The notes below the pieces were generated by a model. That model saw only the letters and a program-made list of their open reading frames with translations, made no database searches and was not told where the DNA came from. Position numbers and translations under genes: made by a program. Shown one piece after another: positions 23,473 to 32,941 of a stretch of 33,170 bases of DNA (within the stretch, counting starts at the first letter, position 1; each line of letters starts with the position of its first letter). Source of the stretch: a virus (Duplodnaviria > Heunggongvirae > Uroviricota > Caudoviricetes). The stretch lies in the IMG/VR virus record IMGVR_UViG_2541047926_000010; one strand, 5' to 3'.

Positions 23473-24113
23473 AGCGCCGCCTTAGCGACATTCAGCCGCG
23501 CCACGCGGTCAGCCTGACCTTCAGCCGGAGGGTTGATACGCCGGGTTACGGCCAGAAAATTGCCTTTGTCAGCCAGCTCGTTGCAGCCATTTGCCTTCCA
23601 GTACCAGGCAGCGCTGCGGGCTGCGTTGAGATACTCCAGTAACAAATCGGGATTCGCGATGAGATCGAGGCCCAGCGCCTTACCGCAAAGGCGGTAATTA
23701 TCGCGCAGGGTAATCTGAATCAGGCCACGTCCGCGAAAGCGCCAGCCATCGCCTGATGCTTCATTACCGTTACCCCCCTGATTTGCGTAAACATAATTGG
23801 CCATTTTTTCAGGATTACGGGTATAGCGGCGGGCAAATTCCACCTCTCTCGGCTCGATAATACGATTCTTATTGAGATCGAAGTCGCTGCGGAAAATACG
23901 CGCCACGCGCTCAGCATCTGAGTAATAGAGATTTTCACTGAGCCGACTGAAACCCGCGCTCTCATGGCCGGTTTGAGCAATAAAGGCGGCAAGTCGGGCG
24001 GGTGTATTAATTTCGAATTCAGCGGTGGCTTTACTGAATGGTTCAAACCAGCGTTGCGCCATTACTGGCGAAAGGCCTGCGGCTCGCTGAAATTGTGGGA
24101 GTGTTAAAAGCAT
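23469..24113 (-). CDS. Endolysin, glycoside hydrolase family 19 (chitinase-like)
   Basis: 214 aa; GH19-like motifs FRGRGLIQITLRDNY and AAWYW; no N-terminal signal-anchor-release segment. Confidence 0.8.
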   Translation of the reverse strand: MLLTLPQFQRAAGLSPVMAQRWFEPFSKATAEFEINTPARLAAFIAQTGHESAGFSRLSENLYYSDAERVARIFRSDFDLNKNRIIEPREVEFARRYTRNPEKMANYVYANQGGNGNEASGDGWRFRGRGLIQITLRDNYRLCGKALGLDLIANPDLLLEYLNAARSAAWYWKANGCNELADKGNFLAVTRRINPPAEGQADRVARLNVAKAAL

Positions 24114-24190
24114 AACGCCATCCGGTTAAAAAGGAATGGCGTCAGTATTTCATCGGGTTAGGTGAATAATCAGGTGAAGGGGTTCAGTGG
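24114..24190 (-). promoter_or_regulatory. Candidate activator-dependent late promoter upstream of the endolysin gene
   Basis: Minus-strand CCACTGAACCCCTTCACC (plus 24173-24190); 23-bp spacer to -10-like AATACT; imperfect hairpin 24115-24142 directly before the ATG. Confidence 0.5.
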
Positions 24191-24191
24191 T

Positions 24192-24671
24192 TTATTCAGT
24201 CACATCTATTATTATGGGTTCATTCGATTCTGGTTCAACATCTTTTTTCACCATGTATTCCCCCTTTGCTTTAGCTTCATCAATCAATGGGAGATATCTA
24301 TAAACAATTTTCCATACTTCTTCATCTTGTTTAAAGTCAAGATTGCGGCATGCTTGCCTCTCATTCATAGGGTCTGTTGAGTTCATTTTATCAGGATTGG
24401 AAACCAATAAAATTTTCCTCCATGCGCAAGATTTCGTTTCGTTTTTCTTTATGAAATCAAACCCGCCCGTTTTAGAACTGCCTGTCTGATATGCAAAAGC
24501 TAAATTCCTTTGTGCCTGATAGCCGTCTTTAATCGCCGCGTTAATGAAATCATTCTCAGTCTTAATCGATCCCTGTGCTTGCTCAGGAATATTTAGTTTT
24601 GTTAATTGGCCGTTGTTAGCCATGCTGTTAAAGCTAATTAAAATACAACCGGCAGCAATCAAACATTTCAT
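24192..24671 (-). CDS. Secreted protein of unknown function (AT-rich moron)
   Basis: 159 aa; Sec-type signal MKCLIAAGCILISFNSMA; AGGAG 5 nt upstream of the ATG; by eye clearly more AT-rich than the flanking phage genes. Confidence 0.65.
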   Translation of the reverse strand: MKCLIAAGCILISFNSMANNGQLTKLNIPEQAQGSIKTENDFINAAIKDGYQAQRNLAFAYQTGSSKTGGFDFIKKNETKSCAWRKILLVSNPDKMNSTDPMNERQACRNLDFKQDEEVWKIVYRYLPLIDEAKAKGEYMVKKDVEPESNEPIIIDVTE

Positions 24672-24679
24672 AACTACTC

Positions 24680-25114
24680 CTAAAAAAGTGAGTTTTGTGT
24701 TGAGGTTCCATTACTCTTTTCCGCAGCAAGAAGCTGCCAACCGAAGCGATCACTAAAACCATACTTAGGGCAAAGAAAGGTCATGGCCATAAGAGAGGAT
24801 GAACCTTGTTCACGCACTTCGGCGAACTCGGCGAGAAAGCGGCGGTTGCGTAATTCACGAAGGGCACGATCACAGCGCGGTAAATAGAGAACTTCTCCGC
24901 CGAAATTCTTGATGAGTAATTGGGTTTTATCATCGCCGATAGTATTGCGCAGGAGGGCTGCGCGGCTGGCCCCCATAGCGCGGAGGCCTTTACCTATCGG
25001 GAACGTGGTGCCACCAAAAGCAGAAAGAAGCTGCTCGGTCGCCGGGAAGCCTATCAGGTCAGCTATTTGAATCACTGCTGATGGCAGCAGCTCCGTTACC
25101 TGTTCCAGATTCAT
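24680..25114 (-). CDS. Mor/C-family transcriptional activator
   Basis: ATG 25114 (MNLEQVTELLP; track ORF begins upstream at 25150); GGEVLYLPR segment resembles the Mor/C conserved core; directly downstream of gemA. Confidence 0.75.
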   Translation of the reverse strand: MNLEQVTELLPSAVIQIADLIGFPATEQLLSAFGGTTFPIGKGLRAMGASRAALLRNTIGDDKTQLLIKNFGGEVLYLPRCDRALRELRNRRFLAEFAEVREQGSSSLMAMTFLCPKYGFSDRFGWQLLAAEKSNGTSTQNSLF

Positions 25115-25535
25115 TATTACGCTCCCGCTTTTTTCGCCGACTCGCATCAATGCTGAGAGCCTGCATGAGTTTGGTTAACTGTTCAGTCGTCAACCACTCG
25201 ATGTATTTGACGTGAAACATATGATCGCACATTTTCTCGGCATAATTCCACGGACGTTTTGCATCTGCAAGTAATGCGTTAATTTTAGAAAGAATTGACT
25301 CGCGCGTATTGGCAACCTTTGGGCGTCGACCGTGTTTTACTGAGTAGCGAGGAAAACCCTTGTCATGCATATATTCCATGACAGCCTGCAGCTCGTCGAG
25401 GGTGCATTTAGTGGATGATGTTTTACCGTTGCATAAGCGAGACAGAACACTACGGTAGGTTACCTCATCCCACCCCAGATATGCCTGACCGGCTTTAATT
25501 GCCCCTATAAGGCCTCGTTTTGCTGGCGTGGACAT
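25059..25535 (-). CDS. gemA: GemA-like protein (DUF1018-like)
   Basis: ATG 25535 with AGGAG 7 nt upstream; N-terminal MSTPAKRGLIGAIKAGQAYLGWDEVTYRSVL typical of the GemA family; followed by a Mor/C gene as in Mu. Confidence 0.75.
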   Translation of the reverse strand: MSTPAKRGLIGAIKAGQAYLGWDEVTYRSVLSRLCNGKTSSTKCTLDELQAVMEYMHDKGFPRYSVKHGRRPKVANTRESILSKINALLADAKRPWNYAEKMCDHMFHVKYIEWLTTEQLTKLMQALSIDASRRKKRERNNESGTGNGAAAISSDSNS

Positions 25536-25563
25536 AATATTTCTCCTGTTGGTTGTCATTATC

Positions 25564-25587
25564 GCAGGCACTTTATGAAGTGCCTGC
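25564..25587 (-). promoter_or_regulatory. Perfect 10-bp inverted repeat with 4-bp centre upstream of gemA
   Basis: Plus GCAGGCACTT TATG AAGTGCCTGC; lies between the last accessory early gene and the gemA ribosome-binding site; no U-tract follows. Confidence 0.4.
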
Positions 25588-25602
25588 TGTAATGACTTAC
25601 TT

Positions 25603-25812
25603 TCAAGGTTTCATTTTGCTGACTGATATACCACCGATTTTCCCTTCGACCCTGACAACCAGACGACCATTGCGCATATGCCAGGCTGCCGGGCGGGTTA
25701 TTACAGTTTCCCGCTCCGATACACCAGGTGTCAGGTAATAATGGAACTGTGAGTCAACGGGGAAGCGCTGGTTAAAGGTCTTTGCTGTCAGATTTCTCAG
25801 GAGATGTCCCAT
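25603..25812 (-). CDS. Hypothetical early protein (69 aa)
   Basis: ATG 25812 with GGAGG 6 nt upstream; overlaps upstream gene end. Confidence 0.5.
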   Translation of the reverse strand: MGHLLRNLTAKTFNQRFPVDSQFHYYLTPGVSERETVITRPAAWHMRNGRLVVRVEGKIGGISVSKMKP

Positions 25813-25990
25813 AGTTTTCCTCCAGATTCGCATCGGTGGCAATAATGCTTAATGGCCATAAGAGAAAGGCAAACCAGTAATTCTGGCGGGATAAATTAGC
25901 TAATCCCACTAATCGGGCCAGAATGCATATCCAGCACCAGCCAAGTGTTAAATACATCGCCAGCAATATGATAATGAAAGCTATATCCAT
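25772..25990 (-). CDS. Small membrane protein with two predicted transmembrane helices (72 aa)
   Basis: ATG 25990 overlaps upstream stop (TGATG); hydrophobic IAFIIILLAMYLTLGWCWICILARLV and WFAFLLWPLSIIA. Confidence 0.5.
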   Translation of the reverse strand: MDIAFIIILLAMYLTLGWCWICILARLVGLANLSRQNYWFAFLLWPLSIIATDANLEENYGTSPEKSDSKDL

Positions 25991-26205
25991 CACTTTATCC
26001 CCCGAAGTTTCTTGAAAGATTCAATCGCCTTCTTCATATCAGCCTGAGTCCCCTTATTGCGTACCTTACGGTTACTGGCGTCGTAATAGTTGAACCGCAG
26101 CTTAAGTGGCACCGCCAGCAACTCGACAACCTGGCTGTTATCGCGGAAGAACCAGATTCGGCGGTTACCGTTATCCTGGAACTGGCAGCCCGTTACGCTA
26201 TGCAT
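25990..26205 (-). CDS. Small basic early protein (71 aa), unknown function
   Basis: ATG 26205 with GGAGGTGA 5 nt upstream; overlaps upstream stop by 8 nt; Lys/Arg-rich. Confidence 0.55.
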   Translation of the reverse strand: MHSVTGCQFQDNGNRRIWFFRDNSQVVELLAVPLKLRFNYYDASNRKVRNKGTQADMKKAIESFKKLRGIK

Positions 26206-26572
26206 AACTCACCTCCGTTAATGGGTGACGCTTACGGTGGATCGCAATCGACACGCTTTCCCAGTCCTGGTAAAGGAACAGCAGCCCTAGCTCACAGGCG
26301 CGATCAAACTCCCTGGTAGCGCCGGTGCTCTTTTCCCACCCGTTCAGCAGGAATACCGCATCAGCCTGCTCAAGCATGGACAATGTAATTTGCAGGTACT
26401 GCTCATGCTGCAGGCCGTCTGGAAGAATGGCCGGGTTGAGAACGGTGAAGCCGCGCTCTTCCAGGATGCGAGCCTCAGCGTTGAATTCATCGCGGTTAAA
26501 GTTGTGATACCCGGTCATTGGACCGGCAATGAAAACCACTGGCTTACGCTCAGAATGTTTATTTATATTCAT
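26198..26572 (-). CDS. Nucleoside 2-deoxyribosyltransferase-like protein (DUF4406-like)
   Basis: ATG 26572 (track ORF begins at GTG 26638); N-terminal VVFIAGPMTGYHNFN and later VFLLNGWEKSTGATREFDRACELG fit my recollection of the DUF4406 pattern; not verified. Confidence 0.6.
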   Translation of the reverse strand: MNINKHSERKPVVFIAGPMTGYHNFNRDEFNAEARILEERGFTVLNPAILPDGLQHEQYLQITLSMLEQADAVFLLNGWEKSTGATREFDRACELGLLFLYQDWESVSIAIHRKRHPLTEVSYA

Positions 26573-26742
26573 CAGAGAAACCTCACATGATTTTTCCAGC
26601 GGTTCTGTGCAGCGCTGCGTTTCTTCTTGTCGCACCACTCGTTGCCAGGCCGGGGTATCGTTGATGGCCAGCCTGTCATCGCTTTACGGTTACTGAATTT
26701 GAAAGGCATGCGCAGCAGTCTTCTTACTTTGCGGTTTGTCAT
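26572..26742 (-). CDS. Unlisted small basic ORF (56 aa), translationally coupled at both ends
   Basis: Manual translation MTNRKVRRLLRMPFKFSNRKAMTGWPSTIPRPGNEWCDKKKRSAAQNRWKNHVRFL; ATG 26742 overlaps upstream stop (ATGA) and its TGA overlaps the DUF4406 ATG (TGATG); below the ORF-track length cut-off. Confidence 0.4.
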   Translation of the reverse strand: MTNRKVRRLLRMPFKFSNRKAMTGWPSTIPRPGNEWCDKKKRSAAQNRWKNHVRFL

Positions 26743-26999
26743 TTGGCATCCGCCTCAGAGCGAAACATCATGATTGTCAGAGCGCCCTTTGTGGCAAGAC
26801 GAACGGTTGTTCCGGGCTCAATGCTCTGCAGATCGAAAGCGTCGTACAACTCATCAACAGCCTTCTGGCGACGTGATGCCTTGCGGTGTTTATCCCACGA
26901 TTTCAGGACAACAGATGTAAACCACTTACCGGCCTGGACCATGATGAATAGCCAACCCATGAAGGCGAGTCCGGTATTCAAAATTTCGGTGATGGTCAT
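26739..26999 (-). CDS. Small protein with N-terminal membrane anchor (about 86 aa)
   Basis: ATG 26999 preferred over upstream in-frame starts; hydrophobic GLAFMGWLFIMVQAGKWF. Confidence 0.45.
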   Translation of the reverse strand: MTITEILNTGLAFMGWLFIMVQAGKWFTSVVLKSWDKHRKASRRQKAVDELYDAFDLQSIEPGTTVRLATKGALTIMMFRSEADAK

Positions 27000-27003
27000 T
27001 TCT

Positions 27004-27249
27004 CTATTCATCTCCCTGGTCGAACAAGATTCGCGAGTAACCCGCATTGGTAGATACTTCCAGCCATCCATCACACCGTTCACCGGTTCTGAGATTTATC
27101 ACCCGAGAATGCTGGTATTGAGAGCCTCGGATGTCTTCCAGTTCATCATCGCTGAAAAACATCGGCTCTCCGCAGTGAGGGCAGTAGCATCCGTAATCAC
27201 CATCAGCGCGCCCAATTTTGTTAACTATGAGAATTTCGTTGGTAGCCAT
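27004..27249 (-). CDS. Small Cys-rich (zinc-ribbon-like) early protein, 81 aa
   Basis: ATG 27249 with AAGGAG 7 nt upstream; C-Y-C-P-H-C and a further Cys. Confidence 0.5.
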   Translation of the reverse strand: MATNEILIVNKIGRADGDYGCYCPHCGEPMFFSDDELEDIRGSQYQHSRVINLRTGERCDGWLEVSTNAGYSRILFDQGDE

Positions 27250-27250
27250 A

Positions 27251-27598
27251 TCACTCTCCTTTACCGGCAGCGGCAGCGCGTTCTGCGTCATACAGCCATG
27301 CATCAATCGGATTCAATGAGTTTTCGATTGGTGCCCCTCCTGATTGATACATCAGCTGCTTTGCACGTAAAAACAGCTCGTTCACAGCTTCCAGCTCATC
27401 CAGCTGCGCCAGCACATTAGGGTCACTAACATCAACAACCGTTAGCGCGTTGGCACGAGCAAACTGGACATCAAGCGCTGTTGCCAGATTGCGAACCAGC
27501 GCGGCACACTCAGCGCAATGTAGTTCTTTCGCCAGCGCATGCCCGGCTGCTACGAGTTCTTTGACTGGCGTAGTTTCCAGTTGAGGCGAGATTTTCAT
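27251..27598 (-). CDS. Hypothetical early protein (115 aa)
   Basis: ATG 27598 overlaps upstream stop (ATGA); Ala-rich helical character. Confidence 0.5.
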   Translation of the reverse strand: MKISPQLETTPVKELVAAGHALAKELHCAECAALVRNLATALDVQFARANALTVVDVSDPNVLAQLDELEAVNELFLRAKQLMYQSGGAPIENSLNPIDAWLYDAERAAAAGKGE

Positions 27599-28314
27599 TT
27601 TGTCACTCCAATCTGTTCGCATTTATTAGCTGAACTGCTTACCGCGTGATGCAGCTGCGCATTGCGGCCAGCCAGATATCCCTCGTTTTCCGCCTTATCC
27701 GTTCCCCTGGCTTTGCCGGGTTTGCGCGGTTCCAGCTTTTTCATGCCTTCGCTTAATTTCCTGCTGCGGTAACACTCCATCAGCGTTGTCTCCGCCTCCG
27801 TAACAGCGAAATCACTGACAACGGCATAAGCACCGTTGACCCAGGCGGAACAGAAGGTATCGGCGCGGGCAACTTTTGTGGCCTGTTTGATGTTCTTGCG
27901 TAATGTGGAGAGGTAATCACGGCGGGCTTTCGCCAGTTGCTTACCCAGAACTTCGAATGAATATGCCGCTATCTGAGGGCGTTCGTCGGGGCCGTAATAG
28001 TGTATGGTGCGTTTTGCTGGCTTGCCCCACTGCTCAGCGCCATGGCTGGTGTAAAACTTCACGCCAAAAACGCGCGCGACCATCTCTGCCAGTATTGCCA
28101 TATATTCCGGCATCTTCTCAGCATGAGAGGGGGCCTTCTGGGTAGAAGCTTCATTGATATCCATCAAATCAGCATCAGCCTCAGTCAGTTTGTGGGTTTC
28201 CATCAGGCGCTGAGCGCGGCTAAGGGCAAGTGCGGCTTCTTCGGCGCTGGAGTTATTACGCGCCATCGCGAGCAGCTTTTTAATTCTCTGGATATATTTC
28301 TCTTTATTTTCCAT
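27595..28314 (-). CDS. Early protein with DUF2786-like N-terminal domain
   Basis: 239 aa; AAGGAG 8 nt upstream of ATG 28314; N-terminal YIQRIKKLLAMARNNSSAEEAALALSRAQRLM resembles DUF2786 as I recall it. Confidence 0.55.
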   Translation of the reverse strand: MENKEKYIQRIKKLLAMARNNSSAEEAALALSRAQRLMETHKLTEADADLMDINEASTQKAPSHAEKMPEYMAILAEMVARVFGVKFYTSHGAEQWGKPAKRTIHYYGPDERPQIAAYSFEVLGKQLAKARRDYLSTLRKNIKQATKVARADTFCSAWVNGAYAVVSDFAVTEAETTLMECYRSRKLSEGMKKLEPRKPGKARGTDKAENEGYLAGRNAQLHHAVSSSANKCEQIGVTK

Positions 28315-28394
28315 TACAGAACTCCTTAATTCAGGCGTAAGCCACCCCCGGCAGGTTTACGCCATATTTAAAACAGGTTTAATTAAAAGTTATT

Positions 28395-28586
28395 TCAGCC
28401 AGCAGGTATCAGCGATTTAATATTGGCGAAATAAGGTTCCTGATTTATTTCAACTACCGATACATCGCGGCAGTCGCGAGCCAGATCAACGGTGCTGACG
28501 ACCTTACCACCACGTAAAACCGGATTCGGCTGATAAATAAAGACGCTACCAACCGGATATTTTTGGTTGAACTCTTTAGCTTTCAT
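28395..28586 (-). CDS. Hypothetical small early protein (63 aa)
   Basis: ATG 28586 (MKAKEF) with G-rich ribosome-binding site; track ORF extends upstream to 28673. Confidence 0.4.
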   Translation of the reverse strand: MKAKEFNQKYPVGSVFIYQPNPVLRGGKVVSTVDLARDCRDVSVVEINQEPYFANIKSLIPAG

Positions 28587-28800
28587 CCGAAATCCCCCAG
28601 CCGCGAGTAGCCGCGTTCGCGCAGAACTCCAGTCGACGAGTGGCCCAGAATCGACCGGAAGTGCCACGAGCAAACATCAACGCTTTACCCCATAATTCAG
28701 CAGCCCTGGAATATTCGCCATTACGTTCGGCACGAATCGCGCCGGTGGCATAGCATCCGTAGTTGTTGCGAGCTGAATTTTCTTTAATCTTTCCAGACAT
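28576..28800 (-). CDS. Hypothetical small helical early protein (74 aa)
   Basis: ATG 28800 (MSGKIKEN) directly after the upstream stop; track ORF extends upstream to 29025 across the preceding gene. Confidence 0.4.
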   Translation of the reverse strand: MSGKIKENSARNNYGCYATGAIRAERNGEYSRAAELWGKALMFARGTSGRFWATRRLEFCANAATRGWGISDES

Positions 28801-28801
28801 A

Positions 28802-29452
28802 TCACACCCCTGCACCTGCAATATCGAGGGCAATCGGACGATATTCATCCGAATCACCAACACGCTCATACACGCGGATATAAGAACGGCTACCGACGAC
28901 CTGCACAGCCTCACCGATGGCCTGCATGGCTTGCTGCCAGCGATCATCATCAATTTCCAGACGACGAAGTGCCAGAACACGCCCGGTATTGATATTGCCT
29001 TCTTTGTCAGTATCAAACGCCTCATTGACCAGCGCCTTCAGCTCAGGACGGGCACCTTCTGTCCAGTCAGCGAGGCAGGTATCAATAAGCGCCTTTGCAG
29101 TCTGAATCCGCTCGTCCAGGGCGATTCGGTCCTGCATGGCTCGCTGGATTTTGAAACGGCCATCAAAGCTGTAGAGCGTGACATTACCTTTTTTACCGCC
29201 TTTGATGGCCCCGTATTTCTCCGCTGAAAGGTCGATAAATGCCTGAATATCAGCAAAGGCGCGTGATTTCAGCTCACTCAGGGCAGAGGAAACGATAATC
29301 GCCTGCGTAACGAGTTCGCCAACGAGCTGGTCGCGGTCGCGGTCGATTTCTTTAATCAGACTGACAGGCGTCAGAACGCCGCGAGCATCAGTCCAGTATC
29401 CCTCTGGTGCCTGGGTGGTAGTGTATTGTTTGATGGTGTTTTCAGTGGACAT
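28802..29452 (-). CDS. DUF3164-like early protein (not recognisable as Mu Gam)
   Basis: ATG 29452 with GGGGA upstream; about 216 aa; sequence character recalled as DUF3164, common in Mu-like early regions. Confidence 0.5.
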   Translation of the reverse strand: MSTENTIKQYTTTQAPEGYWTDARGVLTPVSLIKEIDRDRDQLVGELVTQAIIVSSALSELKSRAFADIQAFIDLSAEKYGAIKGGKKGNVTLYSFDGRFKIQRAMQDRIALDERIQTAKALIDTCLADWTEGARPELKALVNEAFDTDKEGNINTGRVLALRRLEIDDDRWQQAMQAIGEAVQVVGSRSYIRVYERVGDSDEYRPIALDIAGAGV

Positions 29453-29633
29453 TGGACTTCCCCTTTTTCTGAATTGCATGACGGATTTTTTCGTTAACAT
29501 GGCCAGCCAGGCCATATCCCACAGTGGCTGCGACTTTCTGAGTCAGTTCACTGTCTTTGTCATCCGGAACAACCTGGCACTCCACACGGATACCGCGCGG
29601 TGCATCGGTTATGCTGATTACGACTTTTGCCAC
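29442..29633 (-). CDS. Hypothetical small early protein (63 aa), GTG start
   Basis: GTG 29633 with AAGGAG 8 nt upstream; no in-frame ATG near the start. Confidence 0.45.
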   Translation of the reverse strand: MAKVVISITDAPRGIRVECQVVPDDKDSELTQKVAATVGYGLAGHVNEKIRHAIQKKGKSNVH

Positions 29634-29645
29634 TTATTTTCTCCT

Positions 29646-29924
29646 TCAATGAATAGATTCTGACCATACGACACGACAGCCGTCCTGGATGAAAAGGCCC
29701 TGGCGGTATTTACCCGATTTCCCCTGGCCATATTCGATGTAGCTGGCTTTACCGCTGCTGAGCAGGTAATCACACATGGCATGGCGCTGAATACGAATGA
29801 CCGGCTGACCTTCCCGAACCACGATACCTTTCACTTCCACGCCACGGGCCTGGAGGGAAACGACGACAGCTTCGGTACGATACAGCGCTGAAACCAGCGA
29901 GTTATCTGATGTTAAAGTCAGCAT
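29646..29924 (-). CDS. Hypothetical early protein directly downstream of B (92 aa)
   Basis: ATG 29924 with AAGGAGG upstream; at the position where Mu carries kil-region genes. Confidence 0.5.
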   Translation of the reverse strand: MLTLTSDNSLVSALYRTEAVVVSLQARGVEVKGIVVREGQPVIRIQRHAMCDYLLSSGKASYIEYGQGKSGKYRQGLFIQDGCRVVWSESIH

Positions 29925-29944
29925 AAAACCTCCTTAAATCCGGA

Positions 29945-30838
29945 TTAATGGATCAGCATTTCAGCTATCTGGTTGACGATATGACCGCTGACCGGAACAT
30001 CATTCATCGCGCTGGTGCGGACCGCACCGCGCAGCAGCTTGAACAATCGGCGGGCGTTACCTTTTGACGCATTGAACAGCGCTTTGCTCAGGTCTTCATT
30101 CAGGCCATCCGGGAGAACGCTGCTGGCGATGACGTCAATATCAGCACCCGGCAGGCTATGCCCGAGGTTGAGGGCGAAACCGACACGGCTATAGAGCTGT
30201 ACGAGCTCACCGCGTTTGCCCTTGAGGTTCAGAATCAGGCGAGGCATACCAACCAGGACGATGCCGATCCCCGTTTTGTCATGGATGCGGCGGATAGATT
30301 CCAGCGCACGCAGAGGGAGGTTCTCGGCTTCATCAATAATCAGCACGCGTCCGGAGTCGCGCAGCTTGTTGATGCAGGCCTCGCTGAGTTCGTGCATATT
30401 GCCGCGCGTACTGAGCCCCAGCAGGTTACAGAGCTCTTCCAGGACTACCCGTGCGGTGTAGCCAGGGTCTGCCTCAATCAGCAACGCATCCCGGTATTTG
30501 GAGACGTAGGCTTTGCAAATCATCGTCTTGCCCAGACCGGCTTCGCCGTAGAGCACGTTGATATCACCTTCGACGTGTGCCATGCGTATAACATCAACGG
30601 CTTTGCGCGTTGTTGGGGTATCAACAAATTTGACGCTGATACGTGCCGAACGTTCTTTTTCATGCTGACGATCGATAAAGCTACGAATATCGTTTTCCAG
30701 CGATACAATATCGCCGTCGTATTTATTATTCAGATACTGGCTGATTACGGCCGAGCTCTTACCAATGGCGCGGGCGACCTGTGTCTGGTTAAGACCTTTT
30801 GCTTTCATCAGTTCGACAAGTTCATTTTTAGCTGACAT
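29945..30838 (-). CDS. B: Transposition ATPase / target DNA activator, MuB-like
   Basis: 297 aa; N-terminal helix-turn-helix-like segment (LNQTQVARAIGKSSAVISQYLN), Walker A GEAGLGKT, Walker B-like LIIDEAE; directly downstream of the transposase. Confidence 0.9.
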   Translation of the reverse strand: MSAKNELVELMKAKGLNQTQVARAIGKSSAVISQYLNNKYDGDIVSLENDIRSFIDRQHEKERSARISVKFVDTPTTRKAVDVIRMAHVEGDINVLYGEAGLGKTMICKAYVSKYRDALLIEADPGYTARVVLEELCNLLGLSTRGNMHELSEACINKLRDSGRVLIIDEAENLPLRALESIRRIHDKTGIGIVLVGMPRLILNLKGKRGELVQLYSRVGFALNLGHSLPGADIDVIASSVLPDGLNEDLSKALFNASKGNARRLFKLLRGAVRTSAMNDVPVSGHIVNQIAEMLIH

Positions 30839-30883: not shown

Positions 30884-32941
30884 TCAGAAGGTCGCTTTTT
30901 TATTGCCCTGACTTTTCAGCCATTCTTCACGCTCTGATTCGAACAGGAACACATGTTCCCGAGCATCATTAATACGCTCTGCGTCCGATGGTATTAATGC
31001 GCCGAAATCAGGGTACATATCGCTTTCAGGAAGCAGGCCTCTTGCCTCTGCTTCAATCTCTTCCCGTTGTTCGTCGATGCGCTTCAGACGACGCTGGCGA
31101 CGTTTCTCAACGGCGATATCCATCATGCTGGTTGGCAGCGCGGCACGCTTATTGCCGTTCCAGATGGCGGTGCAGACATAAGTACCGTCCATGCGACGAA
31201 CGATGACGGCAGCAGGGTCGTGAATGTCATAGGCGACCCGGACTTCCTCACCGTCGACCTGTATCAGGTCAGCGCTGAAATACTGGTTATTCATCAGGTC
31301 AATCCAGCCCCGCTGGGCGGTGCGGCACATTTCCGGCATGAAGGCTTCACGAAGCTCGATATCCGTCAGATATTCAATATCGTCACCCTCAGTGGCCAGA
31401 ACCTCGCGGCGGTACTGTGCTGGCGTCATATGCACACCATTACGTTTTGGTAGCTCGCTGTGCTCATGCAGGTTGTTGTATTTGTCGACTTCCTCAGCAA
31501 TGGTATCCAGCAGCATCTGCCACGACGGCAATTTACGCAGCGCGTTACGCTGTACGCTCGTGAGTTCGCGCCCATTCTCCTGAGCCTTAATCGCTGACTG
31601 GATAGCGCGACCGGTCATCCGCACATGCTCACGGTCGGCCCCGAATCCATTGTAAGTATCAAATTTATTGGCAATCGCTCTCGGTATTACGGCGTTCAGT
31701 CGTTCGATAATCCCGCGTGACTGCGGTCGACCCGGAATACTGGTCGGGTGATCAATACCCATGCGAGTGAAAATACCGGTGATATCAGCATCCAGCGTTT
31801 TATTGGTTTCACCGCCACCGTTATCCGAATAGACAAAAAGAGGTTTTCCGTGGAATTTCATGGCGTAGCGATAGGCATCCGCTACGGCGATGACGTTCTC
31901 TGAGAGCGCCAGGCTCCAGCCCACCAGGTAGCGGGTGCGGCCATCGATAACCAGCGTCAGTTCAGGTGTGAATGGACGACCATGGACCGGATGAGCAACT
32001 TTCATATCCAGCGATTTACCATCCGCAATCCAGCAACCATTTACTGGCATTTGTGACCAGTCACGCTTCTGATAAACCTCATAAGCCAGAGCCGCTGAAC
32101 CGCTGATACGGCCGCGAGCGCGTTCACGTTTTGGTAGCTTTTCCATCGCCCGACGCACGGCATCATAAGACGGACAGACGGCGAGCATCGCTGGCTGTCC
32201 CGCATAAATAGCCTGCCATTCAGTCTTGAATGAGCGCCACGCATCCACCAGAGAAGGGCCTGAGAGTTTCCGCCAGTGGGCGAGAAAATCAGGGAGCCAC
32301 TTAATCTGCTCAGGCTTACGCGCTTTAAGATGGCCTGGTGCCAGCAAAGCCAGGCGTTCGATACCTGGACGTGTAGAAAGGTAAACAGACAGCCATTCCT
32401 GAAGTGTTCTTTCGCCCACGCCACGACGGCTGGAACCTTTACGCGCATTGGCAATATCAGCCGCAGCCTGGATGTTTTCCGGCAACGTGCCCTTGCGTGA
32501 CTCTTTGGCGATGAACTCAACCGCCGATGCGCGTGACATACCGATATCCCGAAGACGCTCAACCTCTGCGGCTAATAATGCGCGGGCGTCGGCGATCTGT
32601 TTCTGGCGTTCGGTAAGGTCAGAGACCTCACGCTCCAGCAATACCGGGCACTGCCGCAATAACGTCAGTTCGTCGCGGGTCGTGGTGACTTCCCGCTTTG
32701 GTGCAGTCGGCGCTGATGAACAATCAGACTGTTTCAGCACCTCGCGATAATGCCGGGCTTTGACTATTTCACGCGCCTGTTCAGGCAGGCAGTCGATGTG
32801 GTACTCGAATGCTTTGCTGCCAGCACGTTTGCGAACCAGTTCAGGGGAGTTGCCTGCACTTTTTTTAAGGCTGTATCGCAGTCCTTGTTGTGTTGTTGGC
32901 AGTCCAGGGACGCCAACTAATTCGTTAACAGTCACGAACAT
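30884..32941 (-). CDS. A: DDE transposase, MuA-like
   Basis: 685 aa; size, position between ner and B, Mu transposase-like domain organisation. Confidence 0.9.
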   Translation of the reverse strand: MFVTVNELVGVPGLPTTQQGLRYSLKKSAGNSPELVRKRAGSKAFEYHIDCLPEQAREIVKARHYREVLKQSDCSSAPTAPKREVTTTRDELTLLRQCPVLLEREVSDLTERQKQIADARALLAAEVERLRDIGMSRASAVEFIAKESRKGTLPENIQAAADIANARKGSSRRGVGERTLQEWLSVYLSTRPGIERLALLAPGHLKARKPEQIKWLPDFLAHWRKLSGPSLVDAWRSFKTEWQAIYAGQPAMLAVCPSYDAVRRAMEKLPKRERARGRISGSAALAYEVYQKRDWSQMPVNGCWIADGKSLDMKVAHPVHGRPFTPELTLVIDGRTRYLVGWSLALSENVIAVADAYRYAMKFHGKPLFVYSDNGGGETNKTLDADITGIFTRMGIDHPTSIPGRPQSRGIIERLNAVIPRAIANKFDTYNGFGADREHVRMTGRAIQSAIKAQENGRELTSVQRNALRKLPSWQMLLDTIAEEVDKYNNLHEHSELPKRNGVHMTPAQYRREVLATEGDDIEYLTDIELREAFMPEMCRTAQRGWIDLMNNQYFSADLIQVDGEEVRVAYDIHDPAAVIVRRMDGTYVCTAIWNGNKRAALPTSMMDIAVEKRRQRRLKRIDEQREEIEAEARGLLPESDMYPDFGALIPSDAERINDAREHVFLFESEREEWLKSQGNKKATF

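Follow-up and report, generated by a model that had tools for sequence, protein, structure and literature searches.

The semi-essential early region of phage Mu (from kil to gemA/mor) holds many small, tightly packed and dispensable genes. A block of six small genes (g1 to g6, on the minus strand between positions 26999 and 25603), at the same position between B and gemA/mor and on the same strand, is found in the Caudoviricetes record IMGVR_UViG_2541047926_000010 of IMG/VR, a Mu-like prophage in which lysis and head genes come after the early genes, and whose whole stretch of 33,170 nucleotides is hereafter called the window. The block is packed like the Mu region, while its gene content is lineage-specific and mosaic: leaving the neighbouring GemA and Mor aside, profile searches assigned no named Mu protein family to any of the six products. 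The third gene, g3, is by its sequence an additional member of DUF4406, a known but uncharacterised protein family, with a predicted fold of the nucleoside 2-deoxyribosyltransferase (NDT) superfamily, and the question addressed here is what its product may do.

Within the NDT superfamily, hydrolases acting on (deoxy)nucleoside monophosphates, or (d)NMPs, are devoid of the Asp/Asn that binds the 5'-OH (PMC12884076). One phage member, DmtZ, is a dAMP N-glycosidase/transferase (i.e., a hydrolase and deoxyribose-5-phosphate transferase) of Z-genome phages (PMC12884076). DmtZ, which acts on a dNMP, is like DUF4406 a small phage protein of this superfamily, and its gene lies beside a nucleotide-pool gene (the dUTPase-like DutZ), just as the DUF4406 gene of Vibrio phage 1.030.O shares 4 nt with an overlapping dUTPase gene. 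Unlike g3, however, DmtZ has a Tyr/Asn/Glu triad and belongs to another sequence family, with its authors' own Hidden Markov Model (HMM), whereas the present prophage, unlike the DmtZ phages, carries neither PurZ nor Z-genome genes. Other described relatives are the (d)NMP N-glycosidases DNPH1/Rcl and MilB/BcmB, which share with g3 the nucleophile Glu motif and the Ser six residues upstream, but from which it differs by a Phe for the triad Tyr, by Tyr60 or Gln62 for the triad Asp, by a core about 30–40% shorter, by a family-specific NPAxLPDGL loop and by a similarity that stays under the family thresholds.

Residues 13–100 of g3 match positions 2–89 of the 91 positions of the DUF4406 profile (Pfam PF14359, E=2e-27, 95.8 bits for a cutoff of 22), and the protein further matches phrog_355 (E=3e-35). 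Residue numbers follow the 125-codon translation of 26198–26575, so that numbers in the real protein are lower by one. The family comprises 21,462 clusters at 50% identity (E<=1e-3), yielded 433 word-index homologues, occurs in more than 575 viral contigs and is present in 446 of 50,697 deposited phages, including those of Vibrio (124), Arthrobacter (89), Gordonia (72), Mycobacterium (49) and Pseudomonas (32). In an alignment of 40 sequences, its invariant motifs are I-A-G-P-M-x-G, N27, F31, L-N-P-A-x-L-P-D-G-L, Y60 and G-W-E-x-S-x-G-A-x-x-E. Compared with other DUF4406/PHROG 355 members, g3 stands out only by its membership of a subclade with Phe15 instead of Tyr and by a C-terminal extension of ~25 aa.

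The AlphaFold model of g3 (predicted local distance difference test, pLDDT, 88.7) superposes on the alpha/beta fold of the NDT/DNPH1/MilB superfamily. With this model, the best Foldseek match is the NDT of T. brucei (TbNDT, E=3.6e-5), further matches being a cyanobacterial NDT (CtNDT), human DNPH1, MilB and BcmB; at the level of the predicted structure, an NDT/DNPH1/MilB fold is thus shown. A search of the PDB with the g3 sequence returned nothing relevant, while the DUF4406 profile, compared with PDB sequences, aligned to TbNDT (E=1.2e-3) and placed E89 on the nucleophile Glu of the CGTAFE motif. Against human DNPH1, whose sequence was verified, hhalign paired F15 with Y24, Y60 with D80, S83 with S98 and E89 with E104. 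The sequence-only reading of the window had taken the third gene for an NDT-like enzyme and for the best candidate for an undescribed function. The former assignment is borne out by the DUF4406 match, the Foldseek matches to NDT-family structures and the TbNDT and DNPH1 alignments; as to the latter, DUF4406 is indeed uncharacterised, but it is a very large family that databases already list and that is commonly labelled NDT-like.

Conservation at the putative active site was counted over 263 family members. Position 89 is a Glu in 250 of them (250/256 ungapped) and position 83 a Ser in 258 (258/260 ungapped), where TbNDT has an Asp, while Y60 is a Tyr in 260. These alignments show that g3 keeps an S-x-G-x-x-x-E motif, in which Glu89 would be the nucleophile and Ser83 would replace the 5'-OH-binding Asp; an uncharged small residue six positions before the Glu is the mark of 5'-phosphate-specific hydrolases. 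Beyond the triad, N27, N47-P48, D53-G54 and Y60 are invariant and specific to the family. The rest of the triad is not canonical in g3: the position of the Tyr is occupied by F15 (a Tyr in 184 members, a Phe in 73), and no Asp/Asn is found at the third position, residue 62 being an Asp in only 89 members. Since the active site is non-canonical, the chemistry or the substrate of g3 may differ from those of known NDT-family enzymes.

Our preferred reading, to which we give about even credence, is that g3 encodes a nucleotide N-glycosidase or a nucleotide binder adjusting nucleotide pools in early replication. The protein would bind a 5'-phosphorylated (deoxy)nucleotide in an NDT-type pocket, where it would most likely cleave the N-glycosidic bond via Glu89, or else hold the nucleotide tightly; made together with the replication machinery, it would reshape or sanitise the nucleotide pool in early lytic replication. 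We infer the substrate class from the Ser/Asp rule, and the biological role from the gene context and from the DmtZ precedent. In lambdoid loci, the DUF4406 gene directly follows the replication genes (DnaC-like, DUF977) and is itself followed by Ead/Ea22, DUF968, Hok and RusA, which puts it in a nin-type region. In 11 deposited phages of other hosts (actinophages, Vibrio, Pseudomonas), its neighbours encode helicase, Cas4 exonuclease, DnaQ, sliding clamp, SSB, RusA and MazG, while in Mu-like phages it follows the transposition-replication genes. Anecdotally, the shared theme is an early replication/nucleotide module, not a dedicated anti-defence island.

Several observations weigh against this interpretation. 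The replication-module context comes from the 11 phages, inspected by hand, and from redundant prophage loci, and does not amount to a statistical enrichment. Of the three residues of the canonical triad, g3 retains a single one, and the position of the triad Asp is itself ambiguous (Y60 in the hhalign comparison with DNPH1, Q62 in the HMM alignment to TbNDT). In DmtZ, replacing the Tyr by Ala abolishes activity (PMC12884076), and g3 has a Phe there. The canonical NDT families of Pfam stay below their cutoffs (PF05014, 14.2 bits vs. 28.8; PF15891, 19.4 vs. 30), and our literature searches on DUF4406 and PF14359 retrieved no functional study.

The triad also lends itself to another reading, namely that g3 has a regulatory or nucleotide-binding rather than a catalytic function; its F15/Q62 clade would have lost catalysis and would bind a nucleotide or a protein instead. 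In its favour are the two non-canonical triad positions, the combination of Phe15 with no acidic residue at position 62 in 53 of the 263 members, and the minimal core (about 95 aa vs. 135–160 aa in NDTs). Yet Glu89, Ser83, Gly85 and Tyr60 are essentially invariant over the whole family, including the F15/Q62 clade, which suits a preserved active site, and Tyr and Phe swap widely at position 15, so that a loss of catalysis appears rather unlikely to us.

The sequence-only reading had pointed to the host-takeover and anti-defence genes carried in the Mu early region, and had speculated that the enzyme degrades or sequesters a nucleotide signal or a modified nucleotide. In such a scenario, g3 would destroy or sequester a nucleotide-derived immune signal (a cyclic nucleotide or an ADP-ribose isomer), restore an attacked pool or poison effectors of the NDT/CMP-hydrolase type. 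The gene is accessory and expressed early, NDT-like/CMP-hydrolase domains do serve as defence effectors (retron Ec86, type VIII Thoeris ThsI), a degraded triad (F15, no Asp) would suit a binder, and the NDT fold is close to TIR folds. No positive evidence for this role emerged, however. In unrelated phages, its usual neighbours are genes of replication, recombination and nucleotide metabolism, and its 446 deposited carriers infect very different hosts, mostly with the gene in replication/nucleotide modules rather than in variable anti-defence islands. No likeness to a characterised anti-defence protein turned up, although no anti-defence profile library was searched, and the literature provides no link to DUF4406. 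Neither the six proteins nor four neighbours had a match in PADLOC-DB at E<=0.1, and NCBIfam gave no match above its cutoffs. As for the TIR NAD(+) glycohydrolases (SARM1, ThsB), g3 has no TIR match in Pfam, its motifs are of the NDT/DNPH1 type, and NDT-family matches outrank TIR proteins in both fold searches. We therefore judge an anti-defence role of g3 unlikely. A broader version, in which phages would widely use DUF4406 proteins, the Phe15/no-Asp variant included, for counter-defence, as mimics of the TIR/NDT fold against TIR/NDT-based immunity, seems distinctly unlikely; we are just as sceptical of the corresponding mechanism, by which such proteins would bind or cleave immune nucleotide signals, or neutralise nucleotide-depleting effectors of the same fold (the NDT effector of retron Ec86, Thoeris ThsI).

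Very improbable, in our opinion, is that g3 encodes a canonical NDT exchanging bases between deoxynucleosides for salvage, even though many deposited records and phrog_355 bear the name “nucleoside 2-deoxyribosyltransferase” and the top Foldseek match is TbNDT: both Pfam scores given above are too low, the canonical Asp is missing, and a Ser occupies the site of the 5'-OH-binding Asp of nucleoside-specific NDTs. Other labels are inconsistent as well. Deposited phage proteins such as Andrew gp55 (L231), LittleE gp170 (L232) and Mufasa gp55 (L237) are called “deoxycytidylate deaminase”, “MazG-like pyrophosphatase” or “hydrolase”. Considered as informative domain fusions, the records with the first two names proved to be single-domain DUF4406 proteins of ~120 aa, and all three labels are probably wrong; the 36 longest DUF4406 members likewise contain no additional Pfam domain.

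Is the block a functional unit? Relatives retrieved through DUF4406 display a g3-g4-g5 synteny, but they are a biased sample, which is why we turned to GemA to collect Mu-like relatives (68 contigs, of which 64 loci had a GemA match and extractable ORFs). Among these 64 loci, the g6 family is present in 63 (usually in two copies) and the g4 family in 62, while DUF4406 and g5 are each found in 23, the g2 family in about 20 and DUF4752 (g1) in 18. Both g4 and g6 occur in every lineage without DUF4406. Because presence and absence are independent across the loci, the block is not a unit: it is made of two near-core early genes (g4 and g6) and four independently assorting accessory genes. Of the description as an accessory operon, the word accessory hence holds for g1, g2, g3 and g5, but the six genes are no coherent operon of that kind. 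For DUF4406 the accessory status stands, and with 23 carriers in 64 the gene is far from being conserved in every Mu-like phage. In four relatives (L006, L007, L009 and L011) compared with the window over 25600–30838, MuB is 99% identical, with only 42–70% identity for DUF4406, g4 and g5; such sharp mosaic boundaries imply recombination within the early operon.

Two candidate pairings were considered and rejected. In seven lambdoid loci, DUF4406 is directly followed by DUF4752 (in an order reversed relative to the window), but many lambdoid phages have DUF4752 without DUF4406, and of the 73 non-Mu DUF4752 loci in a reverse search, no more than 2 had DUF4406 within 4 kb. Similarly, a coupled g3-g4 pair, suggested by their 8-nt overlap and their synteny, does not agree with the presence of g4 in 62 relatives, including all lineages without DUF4406. 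A single cassette of six genes acting together, e.g., as a membrane-anchored nucleotide-processing complex, is thus largely refuted and extremely improbable: its support (tight overlaps and translational coupling, the seven lambdoid adjacencies in opposite order, the synteny in DUF4406-retrieved relatives) is outweighed by the independent assortment in the unbiased sample, by the mostly DUF4406-free distribution of DUF4752, by the occurrence of g4 in all lineages lacking DUF4406 and by overlaps that are typical of the entire operon.

Coordinates of the block and of its neighbours are given in Table 1.

Table 1. Genes and RNA element of the early region of the window, with the properties of the encoded products.
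Feature	Positions	Strand	Description
g1	26739-26999	minus	DUF4752 protein, 86 aa, N-terminal hydrophobic segment; accessory
g2	26572-26742	minus	56 aa, very basic, isoelectric point (pI) 12.0, small family; accessory
g3	26198-26572	minus	DUF4406 protein, 124 aa from ATG, predicted NDT/DNPH1/MilB-like fold superfamily; accessory
g4	25990-26205	minus	71 aa, basic, pI 10.3, predicted four-strand-plus-helix fold; near-core early gene
g5	25772-25990	minus	72-aa membrane protein (predicted); accessory
g6	25603-25812	minus	69 aa, basic, pI 11.0; near-core early gene
RNA hairpin	25555-25596	minus	between g6 stop and gemA ribosome-binding site
GemA (gp16 family)	25059-25535	minus	PF06252, E=9.5e-20; downstream border of the block
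CxxC zinc-ribbon-like protein	27004-27249	minus	81 aa; directly upstream of g1, same packed operon; phrog_21581, E=5e-26
MuB-like AAA ATPase	29945-30838	minus	
Mu-type transposase (MuA)	30884-32941	minus	

The position of the block between MuA/MuB and GemA/Mor agrees with its earlier placement in a Mu-like early region, as does the presence of co-directional small genes from A/B to gemA/mor with no internal excess of promoters or terminators (in 24000–29000, promoter-like and terminator-like sites were not more frequent than in shuffled sequence). Genes for DUF3164, DUF2786/DUF7168, GemA and Mor are on the minus strand too, like MuA and MuB. The genes listed for L002 (GCA_021446165.1), a near-identical locus in an E. 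coli draft assembly, show stop/start overlaps and gaps of 1–20 nt all along the early operon, from MuB to Mor. Since the entire operon is packed in this way, tight packing is not distinctive of the six genes. The block is an ordinary part of the early (“semi-essential”) operon in a Mu-like enterobacterial prophage. This polycistronic operon is probably transcribed from its early promoter across MuA, MuB and many small genes as far as GemA and Mor, and its genes would be translationally coupled throughout. Besides L002, near-identical copies of the block exist in IMG/VR (L083 and L163), and megablast returned one partial match each in deposited phages and in complete E. coli genomes, so draft assemblies and IMG/VR hold the closest copies.

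At the level of single junctions, the layout of six consecutive minus-strand genes, overlapping or abutting, was confirmed from the ORFs of the window and the sequence between them. g1 and g2 share an ATGA (4-nt overlap), g2 and g3 a TGATG (1 nt), g3 and g4 overlap by 8 nt, g4 and g5 meet in a TGATG (1 nt; GTGA if a GTG start is used instead) and g5 and g6 overlap by 41 nt. Shine-Dalgarno-like motifs precede g3 (GAGG), g4 (GGAGGTGA), g5 (GGGGGA), g6 (GGAGGA) and gemA (AGGAGA). An alternative start of g1, at ATG 27011 (MNREMTIT...), agrees in alignment with DUF4752 homologues, whose N-termini read MNIDxTMTI, and g1 may begin there; if so, it would overlap by 8 nt the upstream zinc-ribbon-like gene, whose counterpart in L002 is called at 81 aa, and the chain of overlaps would be longer.

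The six ORFs are genes and not chance ORFs, since each has family matches, conserved homologues or both. In addition to the matches of g3, g1 matches DUF4752 (PF15944, E=6e-37) and phrog_667 (E=6e-34), g4 matches phrog_9400 (E=2e-19) and g6 matches phrog_19503 (E=2e-30). Compared with relatives at 80–93% DNA identity, the differences are biased toward third codon positions in g1 (against L003), g3, g4 and g6. For g3, the comparison with L001 (NZ_CP070045.1) counts 22 synonymous and 3 non-synonymous codon changes, and codon comparison shows the gene to be under purifying selection. The bias is weaker for g5, an ORF nevertheless kept in its 23 relatives at 37–100% identity, while g2, for which evidence was weak at first, turned out to belong to a conserved-motif family with about 20 or more Mu-like loci. 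Public gene calls of L001 and L002 omit the homologues of g2 and g5, two small genes that are systematically missed in public annotation.

Regarding the other products of the block, g1 had been described as membrane-anchored and g5 as a two-helix membrane protein. A hydrophobic segment does exist in g1 (residues 3–21), but it is borderline (Kyte-Doolittle 1.59); in g5, the first helix is strong (Kyte-Doolittle 2.42, about residues 3–31) but the second segment is weaker. Our literature search on DUF4752 retrieved no functional work. The g2 family (e.g., L211:4037-4309, L220:4812-5161, L226:4498-4847) is characterized by the motifs M(K/T)NRKA..LL, ISNR and SAAQNRWKNH, and occurs in tandem copies in some Mu-like loci. 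The C-terminus of g2 matches phrog_1380 (E=2e-5), while its N-terminal ~22 residues are weakly Sra-like, with 22.3 bits for NF007473 (E=1.4e-4) and, in the L211 relative, 31.9 bits (E=1.4e-7), both under the cutoff of 35; Sra is the stationary-phase ribosome-associated protein. The g6 gene has a paralogue in the same operon, about 2.6 kb upstream (28395–28586; 36% identity over 45 aa, E=7e-7).

The AlphaFold2 model of g4 (pLDDT 90.6) has four strands plus a helix, and its search against the PDB gave no significant match (best E=0.23), with a weak polo-box-like topology; one homologue is named “KTSC domain-containing protein” in UniRef. In relatives without DUF4406, an ORF of 179 aa directly follows the g4 homologue (L181:1291-2052; L182, with ORFs of 74 and 179 aa; L201), and in L181 it is fused in frame with it. 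This ORF matches PDB 2gz4 (Atu1052, E=5e-11), which is presumably an HD-type phosphohydrolase, and has H..HD..D-like motifs. If the identity suggested by 2gz4 is true, a different nucleotide-processing gene adjoins the same conserved neighbour, g4.

Two further features lie downstream of the block. The RNA hairpin between g6 and gemA (7+10 bp with a tetraloop, -28.9 kcal/mol, z=-7.5) is kept in 20 distinct relatives, in which 97.4% of cells are paired, with free changes in the tetraloop, G-U wobble substitutions in the stem and one compensatory pair. No U-tract follows it, and no Rfam family matched anywhere in the window; the hairpin may serve in RNase III processing or RNA stability, or else regulate how gemA is translated. 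Finally, an ORF of 159 aa (24192–24671, minus strand), between Mor and the GH19 endolysin gene, has a signal-peptide-like N-terminus (MKCLIAAGCILISFNSMANN) and is conserved in L001 (94%) and L008 (64%); its product may be an accessory protein that is secreted or resides in the envelope.

For the window itself, these results matter little, as the block is an ordinary part of a mosaic early operon and near-identical copies of it are already public. DUF4406, in contrast, is among the larger uncharacterised phage families, its pocket is predicted to be NDT/DNPH1-like, its genes recur in replication modules, and its public names (“dCMP deaminase”, “MazG-like”, “hydrolase”, “NDT”) clash to the point that annotation is guesswork. 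Knowing the substrate of DUF4406 would annotate thousands of phage genes, and would also tell whether N-glycosidic cleavage is a routine means for temperate phages to edit nucleotide pools.

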